Assembly: GCA_038207085.1 (NCBI GenBank)
Contig: JBBRAE010000004.1
Coordinates: forward strand, 32,001 to 96,000
Direction: 5' to 3'
DNA: 64,000 nucleotides
Origin: Armatimonadota bacterium
GTDB lineage: Bacteria > Armatimonadota > UBA5829 > DTLH01
Both the position numbers and the translations under genes were made by a program. The notes under the pieces were generated by a model that saw only the letters and a program-made list of their open reading frames with translations, made no database searches and was not told the origin of the DNA. Every line of letters begins with the position of its first letter. The first letter of the stretch is position 1. This document shows, piece by piece, positions 7,060 to 17,183 of the stretch.

Positions 7060-7217
7060 TCCGGATCTGTACCAACTGTTCGTCCGGATCTGTGATCCGG
7101 GACGTCTGGGCCGGATAGGCATCTGTGATGCTGGTAGATTGGGCACAGTCGAAAGAACGGGATCACAGATCCCTTGTTTGCCCTTGGGCCCCGGATTGCA
7201 AATCTGGGCCAACGTAC
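7060..7217. repeat. Repeat family E (CCGGAT-hairpin element), also at 13250-13300
   Basis: 30-bp TCCGGATCTGTACCAACTGTTCGTCCGGAT is identical at 7060 and 13250; the GGGCCAACGTAC tail is shared. Confidence 0.8.
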
Positions 7218-7321
7218 GCCCACCAATCTCCCAAATCTCGCCAGTCCCAATTTTGCACTTTGCATTTCCCTCCCGTGTGTGTCATAATAGTTAAAATTGT
7301 ACATTACTATGAAAACTGAAG

Positions 7322-10300
7322 GTGAAGCTATTGGTTGCTAATCGCAGCCGGTATGAGGTTACGGAAGACTGGAGCGCCAGCTGGATCTGGTGCGAGGGCG
7401 AAAGCCATCCCAGAAACTTCCATATTTACGCGCGAAAGGCCTTTAAGCTGGCGAGCAAGCCGGTGTCGGCCCGTATCAGGATCACCGCGGACAGCCGTTA
7501 CAGGTTGTATGTCAACGGGAACTACGTTGGCTGGGGGGCAGCAAACTCCATCACCCGCAGACTGACCTATGATACCTACGATATCACCCCGTTTCTAAAC
7601 AGGGGTAATAACGCCATCGCCGTTATCGCGTATCACCTCGGACACCCGGCATCTAATTACATACCTCGCCGAGCAGCGCTTATCTGCGAAGCTGACATTG
7701 AGCTAAAGAGCGGCGCCGAGAAGATCGTCACCGACGAATCTTGGCGCGTCATACCGGCAGCCGCGTGGACCGATCACGGCAGCCGCGTGGCCCGAAACCT
7801 CGGCTATCAGCAGGTTTACGACGCCGCACTCGACGCCGACGGTTGGAACGAGGCCAAGTTCAACGACTCCAAGTGGCTGGCGCCGCATGTGCTCGGCCAG
7901 CCTCCTATGTCACCGTTCGGCAGGCTTATGCCGCGCGATATCCCACGTGTAGTCGAGCAGAACATACTGCCCGTTGAGATCGTCGGGATGTACGACGCCC
8001 CTCCGATGCCTGCTGAGCTGCTTCCCCCGGACGTGCCGAGGTTTATCTCGCAGTCCGAGCTAAAGCCCATTGAAGCGGGACGGGTAGACAAAAGCGAGCG
8101 CATTCTTGCTGAAGGCGACGACGCGACGATGGTTCGCGTGCCCACTGAGGGTGGCGTCTCGATTATCCTCGACTTTGGCCGACAGGTCTACGGTTCGCTT
8201 GAGATCGCGCTCTCAAAATGCACCAGCGGCATCCTCGACATCGCCTATGATGAGACGATCGACCCCAAAAACGGCATTCGCCCCGACCGAGGCGGCATCC
8301 GCTACACCGACCGCATCATCATCAAGAAGGGCAAACAGGTCTGGAGCAGTTTTGAGCCCAGAGCCTTCCGATACGTGCAGCTCGATTTTAGGGAGTGCGC
8401 GAAGCCTTTTGCTCTGAACCACGTTTTTGTGAGGGATTCGGCGTTCCCGATCGCCCTTATCGGCGCTTTTGAGTCAAGCGATCAGACTCTGAACTATGTA
8501 TGGCAGAACGGGGTCGACTCGGTGCGTCGGGTGCTTATGGAGAGCTATCTCGACTCGCCCTGGCGCGACCGCACGCCGAGCTTTGCAGACGCAGTCGCCG
8601 CGATCAGGCCCGCGTACTCCGCATTTGGCGAGGCCCCTCTTGTAGAGGAACGCCTGCGCCACATAGCCGCCTCCCAGCGCAGAGACGGAGCGCTCCTTGC
8701 GCTTCACCCCAGCGCCGAAAACCGCGTTTTTGTCGATCTTGCGATGCTTTTTGTAATCGCAGTGTGGGACAATTACGTCTGTGGCGGCGACAAGGAGCTC
8801 TTGGCCGACCTGTACCCGACGATTGACCGCTGGCACGGCTGGATCAGCCGGTTCGTCGACGACGACGGCTTGCTTTTTGACGTGCGCGCCGACCTGCTCC
8901 TTGACTGGGGAGGCGTGAACCGCCACGCGGAGATGGCCGGTCTTAGCTGCATGTATCTTGGAGCCCTCGTTGCTATGAAGCAGATGGCAGAGGTGCTTCG
9001 TCGCGACGCCGACGCCGTCGAGTATGACCGCATCGCCGTCTCGCTTCGTGCGGCTATCGACAAGAACTTCTGGAGCGAAAAGCGCGGGCTCTACTCCGAC
9101 ACCCGGATGTATGGCAAGCTCGACGAGCATTTCTCGCGCCAGACCAACATCCTTGCGGCGCGTTTTGACGTGCCGAACCACTATCAGAAGTCGTCAATCC
9201 TCAGGCAGGTGCTCGATGAGCGCGGCCTGCCACAGGTGAACTCACCGATCTTTACCGCGATGCTTGTCGAGACGATGTGCCGCGCGGGTTACGTCGAAGA
9301 GGTCCTCGGATTTATCCGTCAGACCTGGGGGCGTAACGCCGGCGTCTCATCGTCTATTCTTCCGCCGGTCCATCAGCTGCAGGCGTACCTGCTTGGGGCC
9401 GTTCCGACGGGGAACCCGGCAAGGCTTCGCTTTGAGCCCCATATCGCAGACCTCAGGTGGGCCGAAGGGGTCATTCCGACTCCCTCAGGCCCGGTGCGCG
9501 TCCGCTGGAAAGCGGGTATCCGCGGGTTCGCAATGGACGTCGAACTCCCGAACGGTGTGACCGCTGAGATCGTCCCTCCGAGGCATGAGCTTGGGTCGCG
9601 GATAACGGTGGACGGCGCGCAGACCGGCGGCTCGGTGATCGAGCTTGGTCCGGGATTCCACAGCGTGTTGATCTCCAGATCGAGGACGCCAGGCCGCATC
9701 CCCCAGGTGCCTATTGAGGTCGAGATCGTTGAGCTGGTCGAGACGATCCATATCCCGCCAAACCGCGGCGACATCGAGACTGTCGAGCAGATGATCCAGA
9801 TCCTTACCCAGATGGAAAAGGAACATGTCTACGTCATCCCCTCAGATGACGAGGACGAGGGCGTGATAATCCCCGAGGCTCGCCTTGATGAGCCGGAGAG
9901 GAAGTCGCGCAGACGCGGCAGACGCGGTCGTGACAGGCGCGAAGAGCCAGTTCGTGAAACTGAGACCGCCGAAGTCGCTCCGGCGATTGAGACTGAGTTT
10001 ACAGAAGAAATAGAGCCATCTCTGGAGACTGCCACAACCTCCGAAGAGCAGGGCCGCGAGAATCGTCCCAGGCGAAGACGCCGCAGAGGAAGAGGTCGTA
10101 GCGGTTCTCAGCCCTTCGACGGCTCTCAGGATGGCGAGGTCACCGAATCGACCGAAACCACAGAGGCTGTCGAACCTGTCGAGCAGGCCGCAGAGGCCAC
10201 GCAGGAGACTTCCGAACCGGTGGAAGAGTCTTCAGACGAGCGCTCAGACAGCAGGCGTCCAAGACGCCGTCGCCGCAGAAGCCGCAGTGGTCAGGATCAG

Positions 10301-10915
10301 CCCGTTTCTGAATCTCCGACAGATGAAACCGTCGTCGAAGAGCCAGTCGAGGCCGAACGAGTTGCCTCAGAGGAGCCCGAAGCCTCGTCCGATCAGCCTT
10401 CGAGGCGTCCGAGGCGCAGAAGAAGGCGCTCCGGCAGAGGTGGTCAGAACTCCCAGACAGCCGAGACCGTTCAGGCCGAAGCTGCTCCGGAGCCGGTGGA
10501 AGTCGCTCCCGCTCCCGAGCCCGAGCAGACCGAACAGTCCGAGCACCGTTCGAGGTCAAGGTCCCGCTCAAGACGCAGGCGTTCGCCAAGGCCTGTTGAA
10601 GAGCAGCCCGAAGCCGTCGCGCCGGTCGTTGAACCTGCTCCCTCGGAAGCACCGGCAAGGCCCGCGAGACAGCGCACCCGTCGCGCTCCCAAGCCTGCAG
10701 AGGCCACCGAGCAGCCAGCAGCCGAACCGGTCGCAAGCCAGCCGTCAGAGAGCGACAAGGCTCCAAGGCGAAGAACCCGCAGAACTGCGAAACCCGCAGA
10801 GCCTGTCGTGGAACCGTCGTCTGAGCCTGCAGCGTCAGAATCGGCTCCAAAGCCAAGACGACGCAGACCAGCGCGCAAGCCCGCGACCTCCGAAGAAACT
10901 CCTTCGGAGGGCTAA
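7322..10915 (+). CDS. GH78 alpha-L-rhamnosidase-fold protein (probably inactive) with ~360-aa Arg/Glu/Pro-rich disordered tail
   Basis: ITADSRYRLYVNG, LDFGR, RAFRYVQ, FSRQTN and IPTPSG match the GH78 architecture; the tail has 8 Arg-rich blocks. Confidence 0.8.
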   Translation: MKLLVANRSRYEVTEDWSASWIWCEGESHPRNFHIYARKAFKLASKPVSARIRITADSRYRLYVNGNYVGWGAANSITRRLTYDTYDITPFLNRGNNAIAVIAYHLGHPASNYIPRRAALICEADIELKSGAEKIVTDESWRVIPAAAWTDHGSRVARNLGYQQVYDAALDADGWNEAKFNDSKWLAPHVLGQPPMSPFGRLMPRDIPRVVEQNILPVEIVGMYDAPPMPAELLPPDVPRFISQSELKPIEAGRVDKSERILAEGDDATMVRVPTEGGVSIILDFGRQVYGSLEIALSKCTSGILDIAYDETIDPKNGIRPDRGGIRYTDRIIIKKGKQVWSSFEPRAFRYVQLDFRECAKPFALNHVFVRDSAFPIALIGAFESSDQTLNYVWQNGVDSVRRVLMESYLDSPWRDRTPSFADAVAAIRPAYSAFGEAPLVEERLRHIAASQRRDGALLALHPSAENRVFVDLAMLFVIAVWDNYVCGGDKELLADLYPTIDRWHGWISRFVDDDGLLFDVRADLLLDWGGVNRHAEMAGLSCMYLGALVAMKQMAEVLRRDADAVEYDRIAVSLRAAIDKNFWSEKRGLYSDTRMYGKLDEHFSRQTNILAARFDVPNHYQKSSILRQVLDERGLPQVNSPIFTAMLVETMCRAGYVEEVLGFIRQTWGRNAGVSSSILPPVHQLQAYLLGAVPTGNPARLRFEPHIADLRWAEGVIPTPSGPVRVRWKAGIRGFAMDVELPNGVTAEIVPPRHELGSRITVDGAQTGGSVIELGPGFHSVLISRSRTPGRIPQVPIEVEIVELVETIHIPPNRGDIETVEQMIQILTQMEKEHVYVIPSDDEDEGVIIPEARLDEPERKSRRRGRRGRDRREEPVRETETAEVAPAIETEFTEEIEPSLETATTSEEQGRENRPRRRRRRGRGRSGSQPFDGSQDGEVTESTETTEAVEPVEQAAEATQETSEPVEESSDERSDSRRPRRRRRRSRSGQDQPVSESPTDETVVEEPVEAERVASEEPEASSDQPSRRPRRRRRRSGRGGQNSQTAETVQAEAAPEPVEVAPAPEPEQTEQSEHRSRSRSRSRRRRSPRPVEEQPEAVAPVVEPAPSEAPARPARQRTRRAPKPAEATEQPAAEPVASQPSESDKAPRRRTRRTAKPAEPVVEPSSEPAASESAPKPRRRRPARKPATSEETPSEG

Positions 10916-10920
10916 CAGAT

Positions 10921-10957
10921 AAAAAAAGGCCGCCCAACTGAATGGGCGGCCTTTTTT
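10921..10957. terminator. Bidirectional rho-independent terminator
   Basis: A7-GGCCGCCCA-loop-TGGGCGGCC-T7 between convergent genes. Confidence 0.9.
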
Positions 10958-10963
10958 GATGGT

Positions 10964-11941
10964 TTAAGCCAGAACCGTTCGAATCCCCGCTATCGCGTCT
11001 TCTACCTGAGGAATCACGAACTCCTCCATCTGCGGGCTGAAGGGTATCGGCGTGTCGGTCGTACAGACCCGCTCTACCGGCGCATCGAGGTAATCAAAGC
11101 ACTCTTTGCCGATCCTCGCCGCGATCTCACCCGCGACTCCAGCGGTAAGATGCCCCTCATCGATCACCACCGCGCGCCCGGTTTTCTTGACCGAGTTGTA
11201 GACCGTCTGCCAGTCCATCGGCACAAGCGTCCTCGGGTCGATCACCTCGCACTCGATCCCCTCTTCGGCAAGCTTTTCGGCTGCGGCCAGGGCCTTGTGC
11301 ACCATATACGAGATCGCGACCACCGTCACGTGTCTGCCTTCGCGCTTGATGTCAGCGACGCCAAAGGGCACTGTGTGTTCGCCTTCTGGCACCGGCCCAC
11401 CCTCGAAGTAGAGCTTTTTGTGCTCGCAGAAGATGACGGGGTTGTCGTCACGAATCGCCGTTTTGAGAAGCCCCTTGCAGTCGGCTGGGTTCGACGGCGC
11501 GACGACGTACAGCCCCGGAGTGTGGACCATCCACGCGTGCGGGCTCTGCGAGTGCTGGGCGGCGGTTGCGCCTCGCGCGCCGATCGTCATACGGAGCACG
11601 AGCGGCGCTATTGCCTTGCCGCCGGACATATATCTTGCTTTAGCGATCTGGTTTACGATCTGGTCCATCGCGACCGCCGCAAAGTCGCCGAACATAAGCT
11701 CCGCGATGGGTCGGCCTCCGACCAAAGCGGCCCCAAGCGCCGCTCCTACGAACCCGGCCTCGGAGATGGGGGTGTCGCGAACGCGCTCGTCGCCAAACTC
11801 CTCCCACATCCCCTTGGTGACGGTGAAAATCCCGCCGTGAGGCCCGACGTCTTCGCCCATCACAAAGACGCGCGAGTCGGCTCGCATCTCCTCGACCAGC
11901 GCCTCTCGGAGCGCCTCGGCTTGCGTCAAGTTCTTAAGCAT
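10964..11941 (-). CDS. 2-oxoacid/acetoin dehydrogenase E1 beta subunit
   Basis: MGEDVG, RVRDTPISEAG, AAQHSQ, EVIDPRTL. Confidence 0.92.
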   Translation of the reverse strand: MLKNLTQAEALREALVEEMRADSRVFVMGEDVGPHGGIFTVTKGMWEEFGDERVRDTPISEAGFVGAALGAALVGGRPIAELMFGDFAAVAMDQIVNQIAKARYMSGGKAIAPLVLRMTIGARGATAAQHSQSPHAWMVHTPGLYVVAPSNPADCKGLLKTAIRDDNPVIFCEHKKLYFEGGPVPEGEHTVPFGVADIKREGRHVTVVAISYMVHKALAAAEKLAEEGIECEVIDPRTLVPMDWQTVYNSVKKTGRAVVIDEGHLTAGVAGEIAARIGKECFDYLDAPVERVCTTDTPIPFSPQMEEFVIPQVEDAIAGIRTVLA

Positions 11942-15266: not shown

Positions 15267-17183
15267 CTAACGTTTTCCAGGCGGTATCAGCTGCCCCGAT
15301 TCCTCGATTCCCGGCGGAAGACGCCGCGCCGCTTCGCCGTTCACAGTTCGAGCGAACGACTTGCCGTAGGCGTCAAAGCTCACTAGAACAACTGTGTTGG
15401 GCCGCTTGTCTGCCGCGCTCTCTTTCGACTTTTCCGAGAAAAATTGGGGGCGTTCGATCAGCAGGTCAGGCCTGAGCGCAAGAATCCGTGTGGTGACCAG
15501 GAATATCCGCGGGTCCTGGGCGTTCGCAGTAAAGGAACCGCTGCTGTCCACATATACATAGGAGTCTTTGGGCAGAGATCGAATCAAGGGGACAAGCCCT
15601 TCCACCATCTGCCGCGTCGCTATTCCTGAGCTGCGCCATCCCCGGTTGTAGTTCAGCACCGCTCCGGCGAGTGAAGTCGTGACGATGAGCATTGCGGCGG
15701 GCACTGCGAGCTTTGTCGCCAACTCCTGCGCGCGGGCCACAAGATGGGAGCTTTTTTGGCGAAGCGTCAGACCGTTCTTTAGGAAGTCGGCGGCGAGTAT
15801 CAGTACGAGAAACAGAACAGAACCCTCAAATCTCACCCAACAAGCAAGGAAACCGCAAAGAGCGAGTTTGCAGGTGTTTGCGCCAAACCGATGCTTTCGC
15901 AAGTCGACTGCCACCAGGGCTACCGTCAGAGCTATCGGGACGACCATCGCAACTCGGGTCATGTCGGGCGTCAGACCCAAGTACGGGCTTAATAATTCAG
16001 TCAGCCGAACGGCGAGGCCGGTGAGTATGACGATCCAGGCGGGCTCTGTTTGGCCGAGGCCTTGCTGAGGCAGGACGATGAAGAGCGCCGCAAGCGCCAA
16101 GGCGGCCGCTGTTGGCAGAGTCTCCGTGCCGAGGGAGGCGACGGCGATCACAACCGTGCCCAATATCGCCCACGACGCGAGATCAAGCTTCATCTTTTTG
16201 TCCAGCGCCTTCTGGACTACCGCGGCGAGGCACAGCCCTACGCCTGCGCTTGGTATGTAGCCGTAGCGATCAGCCGGGGGCAGCTTTCCAAGTGCGACTC
16301 CGATGCCGAGAGCCGCTCCGGCAAAGACTAGAAGCCCGGGGCGAACGGTGGGGAACCCCTTCCACATCAGAGCTGCGAATAGCGCAACCGGGGCCATAGT
16401 CCAAGCCTCGAAGACCATCGGCTGGTTCAGTATCGGCGGCATAATTCCCACTGCAAGGCGCATCGCACGGTGGAGCAGACTTAGATCCATAACGAGCTTG
16501 GGGTTGCCAAATCCGCTCGTGCACTGCATCTCAAGCAGGCATATACCGGCCAATCCGAGGCCGAACAACAACAGCGTCGCGCCACTGCGCAGATATGCTC
16601 CCTTTTCACGTTTGGTAACGGCAAACAGAGGCAGAACCGGGATGATAGTGGCGAGGCTTGCCGCCTCCTGTTTGGCGAGGCACGCCGCACCCCAGAGCAT
16701 GAAAGCGACAGGCAACCGAACGGCAAACCGCCACCGGTCGTGTAGCAGCGCCAAGGCCGAAATCAGAGCAAGCATGAGCGCGAGCGGCCCGCAAAGCGCA
16801 GAGATCCAAGAGACCGCGTCGGTGTTTCTTGGGTAGAGCGCGAAGACCATTGCGCCCGCGAGCGCCGCTGCGGTTCCAAAACGCAGTTTTCTGCCGAGTG
16901 CGTACACCATCCCAACGCACGCGAGGTGGAACGCGAGGGTGATCGCGTGTGCGGGGAACGGGTTCGTCCCGAACGTGTCGTAGATATGGTTGAACGTCAG
17001 GATGAACAGCGGGCGATAAAACCAACCGCCAAAGTGCCACGGGGCTCGACCCGGGAGCCCCGCCATCATCAGGTGGCCCCAGTCGTCTGTCTGGTAGTAC
17101 GACTGCAGCGCCGGGAAGTATACGGCGGTGGTGAGAACTATCAGGACGGCGACTGCAAGCGCTGCCTTGTATCTATGCTTCAT
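15267..17183 (-). CDS. Polytopic membrane protein, GT-C (ArnT/PMT-like) glycosyltransferase-like
   Basis: N-terminal TM, DD loop, FYRP, FALYP..DAVSWIS, DRYGYIP; many TM helices. Confidence 0.65.
   Translation of the reverse strand: MKHRYKAALAVAVLIVLTTAVYFPALQSYYQTDDWGHLMMAGLPGRAPWHFGGWFYRPLFILTFNHIYDTFGTNPFPAHAITLAFHLACVGMVYALGRKLRFGTAAALAGAMVFALYPRNTDAVSWISALCGPLALMLALISALALLHDRWRFAVRLPVAFMLWGAACLAKQEAASLATIIPVLPLFAVTKREKGAYLRSGATLLLFGLGLAGICLLEMQCTSGFGNPKLVMDLSLLHRAMRLAVGIMPPILNQPMVFEAWTMAPVALFAALMWKGFPTVRPGLLVFAGAALGIGVALGKLPPADRYGYIPSAGVGLCLAAVVQKALDKKMKLDLASWAILGTVVIAVASLGTETLPTAAALALAALFIVLPQQGLGQTEPAWIVILTGLAVRLTELLSPYLGLTPDMTRVAMVVPIALTVALVAVDLRKHRFGANTCKLALCGFLACWVRFEGSVLFLVLILAADFLKNGLTLRQKSSHLVARAQELATKLAVPAAMLIVTTSLAGAVLNYNRGWRSSGIATRQMVEGLVPLIRSLPKDSYVYVDSSGSFTANAQDPRIFLVTTRILALRPDLLIERPQFFSEKSKESAADKRPNTVVLVSFDAYGKSFARTVNGEAARRLPPGIEESGQLIPPGKR

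Follow-up and report, generated by a model that had tools for sequence, protein, structure and literature searches.

An Armatimonadota protein clade that joins a GH78 fold with a drifting active site to an RNase E-like charge-block tail

The closest described systems are the rhamnosidases of glycoside hydrolase family 78 (GH78) and the C-terminal domain of RNase E. In RhaB of Bacillus sp. GL1 the key residues are Asp567, Glu572, Asp579 and Glu841, which the accessible parts of two reports give as crucial by mutagenesis (PMC12524486, PMC3663046). KoRha and BT1001 employ an aspartate as the catalytic acid, an arrangement that requires cis-peptide geometry, and KoRha is active; its acid is Asp222, its presumed base is Glu486, and Asp229 and His508 bind rhamnose (available portion of PMC4690510). 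The C-terminal domain of Caulobacter RNase E is made of alternating charge blocks and, in the available text of the report, is at once required and enough for RNA-dependent bodies, with foci being lost once the positive blocks are removed (10.1101/272286). The gene discussed here encodes a protein with features of both systems. It lies at positions 7322..10915 on the forward strand of a 64,000-nucleotide stretch of an Armatimonadota bacterium genome (GenBank assembly GCA_038207085.1, contig JBBRAE010000004.1, positions 32,001 to 96,000), referred to below as the window, and an original prediction described its product as a probable pseudo-rhamnosidase fused to an RNase E-like tail.

Glycoside hydrolase folds can outlive their catalytic activity: GH18 chitinase-like lectins and the beta-amylase-like protein BAM9 have kept the fold after catalytic loss and reuse it for binding or regulation. 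The clade of the window protein likewise keeps its fold under selection despite lost catalytic residues, but the chitinase-like lectins and BAM9 come from eukaryotes and have no long charge-block tail. The eukaryotic helicase Ddx4 shares alternating charge blocks with the window protein, although its blocks are shorter, and it is their order and not composition alone that drives demixing. Most bacterial condensate scaffolds recognised to date come from well-studied phyla and are either enzymes or organisers of the cell poles. Taken one by one, GH78 enzymes, pseudoenzymes and scaffolds with charge blocks have all been described; a literature search conducted largely outside subscription journals found no description of a GH78 protein with a charge-block tail or of a GH78 pseudoenzyme. 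The result is an order-wide group in an uncultured phylum that couples a large glycosidase body to a charge pattern of the RNase E-body type, and it is a candidate for RNA or polyanion organisation in the Armatimonadota.

The GH78 body and its active site

Residues 14-786 of the window protein form a confident GH78 fold in which the whole five-domain rhamnosidase architecture is kept. Its domains follow the GH78 order, including the concanavalin-like sandwich, and four of them are recognised by Pfam (PF08531, PF05592 just under the cut-off, PF17389 and PF17390). The N-terminal beta-sandwich domain (residues ~14-226; 7361..7999) matches Bac_rhamnosid_N over residues 46-192 (9.1e-16) and, by phmmer, residues 5-212 of RhaB (Protein Data Bank entry 2OKX). 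It is homologous to the N domain of RhaB and to a Pleurotus ostreatus lectin domain (6kbj, phmmer 4.5e-7), and its Foldseek matches include 6kc2 and 6t1d. The former catalytic domain is an (alpha/alpha)6-barrel (residues ~381-691; 8462..9394; Bac_rhamnosid6H, 1.3e-27), followed by the C-terminal beta-sandwich of the fold (residues ~693-785; 9398..9676; Bac_rhamnosid_C, 7.4e-9). An AlphaFold2 model of the core, built for residues 1-870 from a 61-sequence alignment, has a mean predicted local distance difference test score (pLDDT) of 87.4 and a predicted template modelling score of 0.83; the barrel helices span residues 388-691 with pLDDT mostly above 88, and the strands of the last sandwich span residues 693-785. 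The best structural match is RhaB, with a Foldseek E-value of 9.9e-52 and a TMq of 0.75. The VIA alignment to 2OKX has a Z-score of 41.8 and a root mean square deviation of 2.7 Å over 742 residues at 26% identity, and phmmer gives 6.8e-58.

Like RhaB, the window protein has the multi-domain fold from the N domain to the C-terminal sandwich, the equivalents of D567 and D579, and no signal peptide. The last of these agrees with the original prediction: none is visible by inspection, and hydropathy over 11-residue spans ahead of the WIW motif peaks at -0.03. It differs from RhaB at Glu572, which is replaced by Asp, in the deletion of Glu841 together with a His/Trp segment, in an additional extension of 410 residues (linker, helix and tail) and in a gene context devoid of sugar-utilisation genes.

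The altered acid motif, which had been correctly anticipated, reads DSPWRDRTPSFAD (residues 411-423; 8552..8590) in alignments to RhaB and relatives. A HMMER alignment to 2OKX pairs D567 with D411, E572 with D416 and D579 with D423; in addition Ser-Phe replaces the Trp-Trp that precedes D579, and G578 corresponds to A422. The substitution of Glu by Asp, read as a sign of inactivation, does not carry that weight by itself, because KoRha and BT1001 use Asp at the same position and KoRha is active, as far as the available text goes (PMC4690510).

The second change is the more severe. Where alignment shows the catalytic-base segment to be missing (residues 666-686, RQTWGRNAGVSSSILPPVHQL; 9317..9379), the protein reads RNAGVSSSILPPVHQL after W669-G670 in place of the (e)m(v)s(e)GATTFWE...C(H/Y)G(W/S)S of its relatives. 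The net loss of about 17 residues, which bears out the predicted absence of this segment, removes the equivalent of E841 and the His and Trp of the -1 subsite (GATTxWE and C-H-x-W). The pLDDT at the site falls to 61 in the core model and below 50 at residues 673-678 in the full-length model. The deletion is nevertheless real, since it is common to P0003, a relative that is 73% identical, and since contigs from two samples agree on it. An independent Logan contig (run X1) spans 7237-11000 with 0 differences, and a Logan piece from the second sample (X2) crosses the deletion site (9234-9479), again with 0 differences.

As the catalytic base is missing from the sequence, the window protein is very probably not a rhamnosidase, in keeping with the name of pseudo-rhamnosidase given to it, and a non-catalytic state is held with high confidence. 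The suggestion of sugar binding fares less well where the old active site is concerned. D423 of the rhamnose-binding pair is present, but the His and the Trp of C-H-x-W are deleted with the base segment, and sugar binding at this site is doubtful because the histidine that contacts O-3 of rhamnose is among the lost residues. A lectin role at the old site is likewise doubtful as the sugar subsite is partly deleted. The genome contains four other GH78 paralogues, three of which retain canonical motifs, so that real rhamnosidases are available elsewhere in the genome. A search of the genome for EarP, which would offer a cytoplasmic link to rhamnose through arginine rhamnosylation, gave no match, but the control genomes were equally silent and the negative therefore carries no information.

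The charge-block tail and the clade that carries it

The GH78 body is followed by a low-confidence linker (residues 795-810) and by a junction helix (residues 816-836; 9767..9829) that lies within IPPNRGDIETVEQMIQILTQMEKE. The helix is supported by alignments and by AlphaFold2 (residues 816-836 with pLDDT 56-80 in the core model, 816-835 in the full-length model), is amphipathic with an acidic polar face, and is kept in the window's subclade with the motif IPP(G/N)RGDIETVEQMI(R/Q)IL. Beyond it lies the tail, which comprises the last 352 residues (846-1197; 9857..10912) as delimited by charge analysis and modelling. In the full-length model the tail has no secondary structure and a pLDDT of 30-45, and it is predicted to be disordered.

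The tail is a nearly balanced polyampholyte with a positively charged fraction of 0.20, a negatively charged fraction of 0.21 and a net charge of -2. Where eight Arg-rich blocks had been counted, seven satisfy a strict definition of at least five Arg or Lys in seven residues (859-873, 914-926, 977-989, 1027-1039, 1080-1090, 1148-1155 and 1176-1186), and an eighth and weaker one, RPARQRTRRAPK, occupies residues 1113-1124. The strict blocks are spaced by 55, 63, 50, 53, 68 and 28 residues and carry charges of +5 to +9, with intervening spacers of -3 to -15 that are rich in Glu, Pro, Ser, Thr and Ala. Charge segregation exceeds that of composition-preserving shuffles by 8.8-10.4 standard deviations. 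In a six-frame scan of the genome (3.35 Mb, 7818 open frames with a length of 120 aa or more) this is the sole frame with at least four such blocks, and in a looser scan it is the sole frame in which two or more acidic spacers separate basic blocks. At the DNA level tandem repeats in the tail region amount to just two trivial 9-nt rows; therefore, the blocks are not recent duplications.

Searches with the tail return very little, and what they return points to RNase E. Pfam assigns no family to the tail alone at E-values up to 1, a word search among proteins of 658-2095 aa recovers only the protein itself and P0003, and the best ESM Atlas scores of 0.82-0.87 are below the meaningful level, with one low row corresponding to a RhlB C-terminal cluster. 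A HMMER search of 1.84 billion representatives yields four matches, namely the protein itself, one clade member, P0069 (2.4e-5) and P0070 (7.7e-4). The last two, the sole matches from outside the clade, are RNase E proteins by Pfam and are matched in their C-terminal regions, in which the charge fractions are similar, the blocks carry +5 to +10, spacings are in some cases about 50 residues and the segregation z-scores are 8.3-8.5. The likeness to RNase E that was claimed for the tail is thus a quantitative one. Both are long disordered near-neutral polyampholytes of alternating positive and negative blocks, with Arg blocks of about +5 to +10, spacers of Glu, Pro, Ala, Ser and Thr, segregation z-scores of about 8-9 and weak direct sequence matches. 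Unlike RNase E, the tail is attached to a glycosidase fold and not to an RNase E/G catalytic domain, its period of about 50 residues is more regular, and it is devoid of known partner-binding microdomains; searches of the window protein for the RNase E/G catalytic domain (PF10150), the S1 domain and the zinc link gave no match.

Fusion of the tail to a GH78 body is a property of a single clade. A word-indexed search recovers 67 relatives, of which the nearest 20 (P0003-P0022; 981-1241 aa, ~30-73% identity) are all tailed and the more distant ones are not. In a pooled set of 137 distinct GH78 sequences, with blocks counted after residue 600, at least three basic blocks are present in 34. On a tree of 51 of these sequences all 34 tailed proteins fall into one clade of 37 rows (Shimodaira-Hasegawa-like approximate likelihood ratio test support 100). 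In none of the 100 GH78 sequences outside it does the number of basic blocks reach three, and the tail therefore has a single origin, at the clade's base. Two short-tailed proteins, one of which is truncated where its contig ends, and an interrupted gene make up the other three rows. The window protein pairs with P0003 (support 100) and then with P0015 (support 84). Every full-length member has a C-terminal tail of 165-380 residues that is nearly neutral and predicted to be disordered, built from units of about 50 residues in which a basic block (+5 to +10) is followed by an acidic Glu/Pro-rich spacer, and blocks are typically spaced by 41-63 residues across the clade.

Among 41 related genomes, the five that belong to the window's family all have a tailed orthologue, as do most of those from a second family within the order; none was found in a third family (two genomes), in one genus (three genomes) or in five genomes of the wider class. 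The holders are titled only Armatimonadota or Armatimonadetes metagenome-assembled genomes or 'uncultured bacterium'. The second-family orthologues (L018-L023, L035, L038, L056 and P0016-P0022) begin with a conserved amphipathic peptide of ~15 residues (ML.SLIS.LPAAVGA) and an Arg-rich block that precedes the first GH78 strand; the peptide is possibly a membrane-targeting element. The window's subclade starts with VA(N/R)RSR in its place. In two of these genomes the adjoining gene (L022:11492-12445 and L023:11321-12349) encodes an arrestin N/C-domain protein (Pfam 1.1e-20 and 2.4e-19). The interrupted orthologue, L048 (G035:C3:384564-386636), breaks off just after the base motif, with its frame ending at 692 aa and one TGA inside the region matched in the genome search; the break reflects either an error in sequencing or a genuine pseudogene.

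The active site has drifted in this clade to an extent not seen elsewhere in the set. Asp or Glu occupies every one of the four carboxylate positions in 11 clade rows out of 37, compared to 94 of the 100 sequences outside; of the six exceptions outside, four are gapped at the base, where they may be cut, and two have a non-carboxylate residue. The proposed check on whether orthologues keep both the fusion and the active-site loss comes out positive for the fusion (34 of 37 tailed), whereas the loss affects at least one carboxylate in 26 of 37 and is not universal. The minimum number of losses on the tree is 4 for D567, 3 for E572, 1 for D579 and 2 for E841, and 6 for the loss of any of them. 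At least six separate losses show that catalysis is dispensable in the clade, and the persistence of the full set of four carboxylates in part of the tailed members makes the tail older than the loss. The idea of a repurposed glycosidase scaffold therefore stands in so far as a pseudoenzyme with a real tail is concerned, but the fusion is not tied to the loss that it predates. An unbiased scan for columns whose conservation is 80% or higher among the sequences outside but no more than 60% among clade members finds nine, which include E572, G578, D579, the substrate Trp of the D-W motif and His. Conversely, some positions, such as Y621 and R628, are invariant in the clade and rare outside.

The remainder of the protein is constrained. 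The ratio of nonsynonymous to synonymous substitution rates (dN/dS) of the core is 0.083, 0.094 and 0.071 in three close clade pairs, two of which lack a catalytic carboxylate, and that of the tail is 0.31 and 0.19. The core is more conserved than the tail in all six close pairs. For the window's own lineage the measure is identity to P0003 (81% in the core, 55% in the tail), as the DNA of P0003 was not found and a metagenome scan gave only a 50% relative, L028. Cores are thus under strong and tails under moderate purifying selection, and the coincidence of this constraint with active-site drift indicates that the fold and the tail are selected and the catalytic machinery is not. Catalytic loss accompanied by core dN/dS of 0.07-0.09 in pairs that lack a catalytic carboxylate is the mark of a pseudoenzyme. 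A tail that predates the losses, the repetition of these losses and the constraint on cores and tails together imply that the conserved role is probably non-catalytic. Repeated decay of a catalytic site within an otherwise constrained protein amounts to a natural experiment in the passage from enzyme to scaffold. It also serves as a warning for annotation, since clade proteins carry the database label "family 78 glycoside hydrolase catalytic domain" and yet 26 of the 37 lack a catalytic carboxylate.

A candidate scaffold and its rivals

The explanation that is favoured, by a modest degree, is that of a cytoplasmic, catalytically disabled GH78-fold protein whose non-catalytic body and polyanion-binding, self-associating tail together act as a scaffold. 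The conserved job of the clade would need no hydrolysis. The folded body, probably dimeric like RhaB, would serve as a binding or oligomerising module and the tail would engage a polyanion by multivalent electrostatic contacts, with RNA the most likely one in the cytoplasm. The tail could also self-associate through block-polyampholyte attraction in the manner of the Caulobacter RNase E C-terminal domain, and body and tail together may then scaffold a condensate or else some large ribonucleoprotein assembly. That the tail binds RNA and forms condensates is inferred; RNA is a tentative first choice of ligand, ahead of DNA, polyphosphate, membrane or a pure spacer function.

Several points weigh against this proposal, and they are best considered together with the rivals that they favour. 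The likeness to RNase E tails is one of composition and pattern, with weak E-values. Arg and Lys are interchangeable across orthologues and the share of Arg tracks GC content (rho 0.65, n=19, with kin that are not independent), which argues for generic charge over Arg-specific recognition of RNA. Inspection of 15 loci revealed no RNA-related neighbour genes, and the N-terminal amphipathic peptide and basic block of the other subclade hint at membrane contact and not at a specific RNA role. The last three observations suit a non-catalytic protein whose tail is directed at something other than RNA, such as the nucleoid or DNA, polyphosphate or an anionic membrane, or that works as an entropic spacer or hydration shell without condensates. 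The spacers, rich in Pro, Glu, Val and Ala, resemble elastic linkers, and the N-terminal peptide and basic block of the second-family proteins could sit on a membrane. The closest sequence matches of the tail are nevertheless RNase E tails, the window protein itself lacks the N-terminal amphipathic peptide, and the strict block and spacer period of ~50 residues, in units that are roughly self-neutralising, exceeds what a spacer needs. This alternative is considered somewhat unlikely, if still a serious contender.

In a bolder version of the scaffold proposal, the clade would stand as an independent counterpart to the C-terminal scaffold of RNase E, with an oligomeric body of glycosidase origin bearing the tail, and would nucleate RNA-containing condensates or a degradosome-like assembly in a host whose RNase E/G is tailless. 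A dead carbohydrate enzyme would then for the first time form the basis of a condensate scaffold in bacteria, but this version is considered unlikely. The sole RNase E/G homologue of the genome has 574 aa and no tail (G000:C20:31476-33200; L001 1129-2853), and RNase E/G is found in 40 of the 41 related genomes, in most of which it is short (open frames of 558-588 aa). A complementary pattern, with tailed GH78 proteins where RNase E is short, was considered and rejected, as RNase E/G is short both with and without the clade protein. RNase Y is present in the genome (C5:130346-130927), and an RNase E-based degradosome need therefore not exist.

It has also to be asked whether the protein is a working glycosidase after all, with a changed specificity or a relocated base and with a tail that merely localises or solubilises the enzyme. 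D411, D416 and D423 remain, Asp occupies the acid position in the active KoRha according to the accessible text (PMC4690510), the core is under strong purifying selection, and a substitute base residue may exist in the pocket. The 11 clade members that retain all four carboxylates imply that the tail must also work on possibly active enzymes, and the role of the clade could involve a sugar ligand. The deletion of the segment that bears the base Glu, the sugar-binding His and the Trp speaks against catalysis, as do the independent carboxylate losses, at least six in number, and the absence of sugar transport or rhamnose catabolism genes next to the gene in the 15 loci. A working glycosidase is thus distinctly improbable.

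A decaying pseudogene, or a tail produced by a lost stop codon, a wrong frame or misassembly, is hardly credible: the catalytic residues are lost, long open reading frames in other frames cover the tail region (10131-10922 on the forward and 10140-10937 on the reverse strand) and one orthologue is interrupted, but the frame is intact over 1197 codons, the fused architecture recurs in 34 of 37 clade rows, the dN/dS values of cores (0.07-0.09) and tails (0.19-0.31) indicate constraint, contigs from two samples agree, and a promoter-like site and a terminator belong to the gene itself.

The gene and its surroundings

The open reading frame counts 1197 codons from a GTG at 7322 to a stop codon at 10913-10915. 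A more likely start is the TTG at 7331, which gives 1194 aa, is preceded by AGGTGA (7320-7325) and agrees with an identical database protein (P0002) that begins MVANRS. A consensus scan identifies a promoter-like site, by pattern match only, at 7259..7288 on the forward strand, ~35-45 nt 5' of the start codon; it consists of TTTGCA, an 18-nt gap and CATAAT, with a TG before the -10 hexamer (extended -10). Directly 3' of the stop codon lies a bidirectional terminator-like hairpin (10922..10957) with a perfect 15-bp stem and A6/T6 flanks, common to the tailed GH78 gene and the convergent gene for pyruvate dehydrogenase E1-beta.

The neighbours are housekeeping genes that encode NrdR, ribonucleotide reductase, a SpoU methylase, an S8 peptidase, pyruvate dehydrogenase E1, MarR and a cysteine desulfurase-like protein. 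In 14 orthologous loci the neighbours show no consistent overlap with those of the window or with each other, close kin aside, and therefore offer no operon clue. With its own promoter-like site and terminator, housekeeping neighbours and no conserved ones, the gene looks like a unit of its own. No RNA sequencing run was found to contain it. Further along the window, at 15267-17183 on the reverse strand, a 638-aa open reading frame has no Pfam family at E-values up to 0.001.

The intergenic region upstream of the gene contains a dispersed repeat of ~137-160 bp (7077-7213 in the window) with palindromic GGATCTGTGATCC-like motifs. At least 23 copies with 84-97% identity are present on many contigs of the genome, and Logan contigs break at the repeat, where word depth is 200-430 compared to 12 in the gene. 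It resembles a miniature inverted-repeat transposable element or an element of the repetitive extragenic palindromic type.

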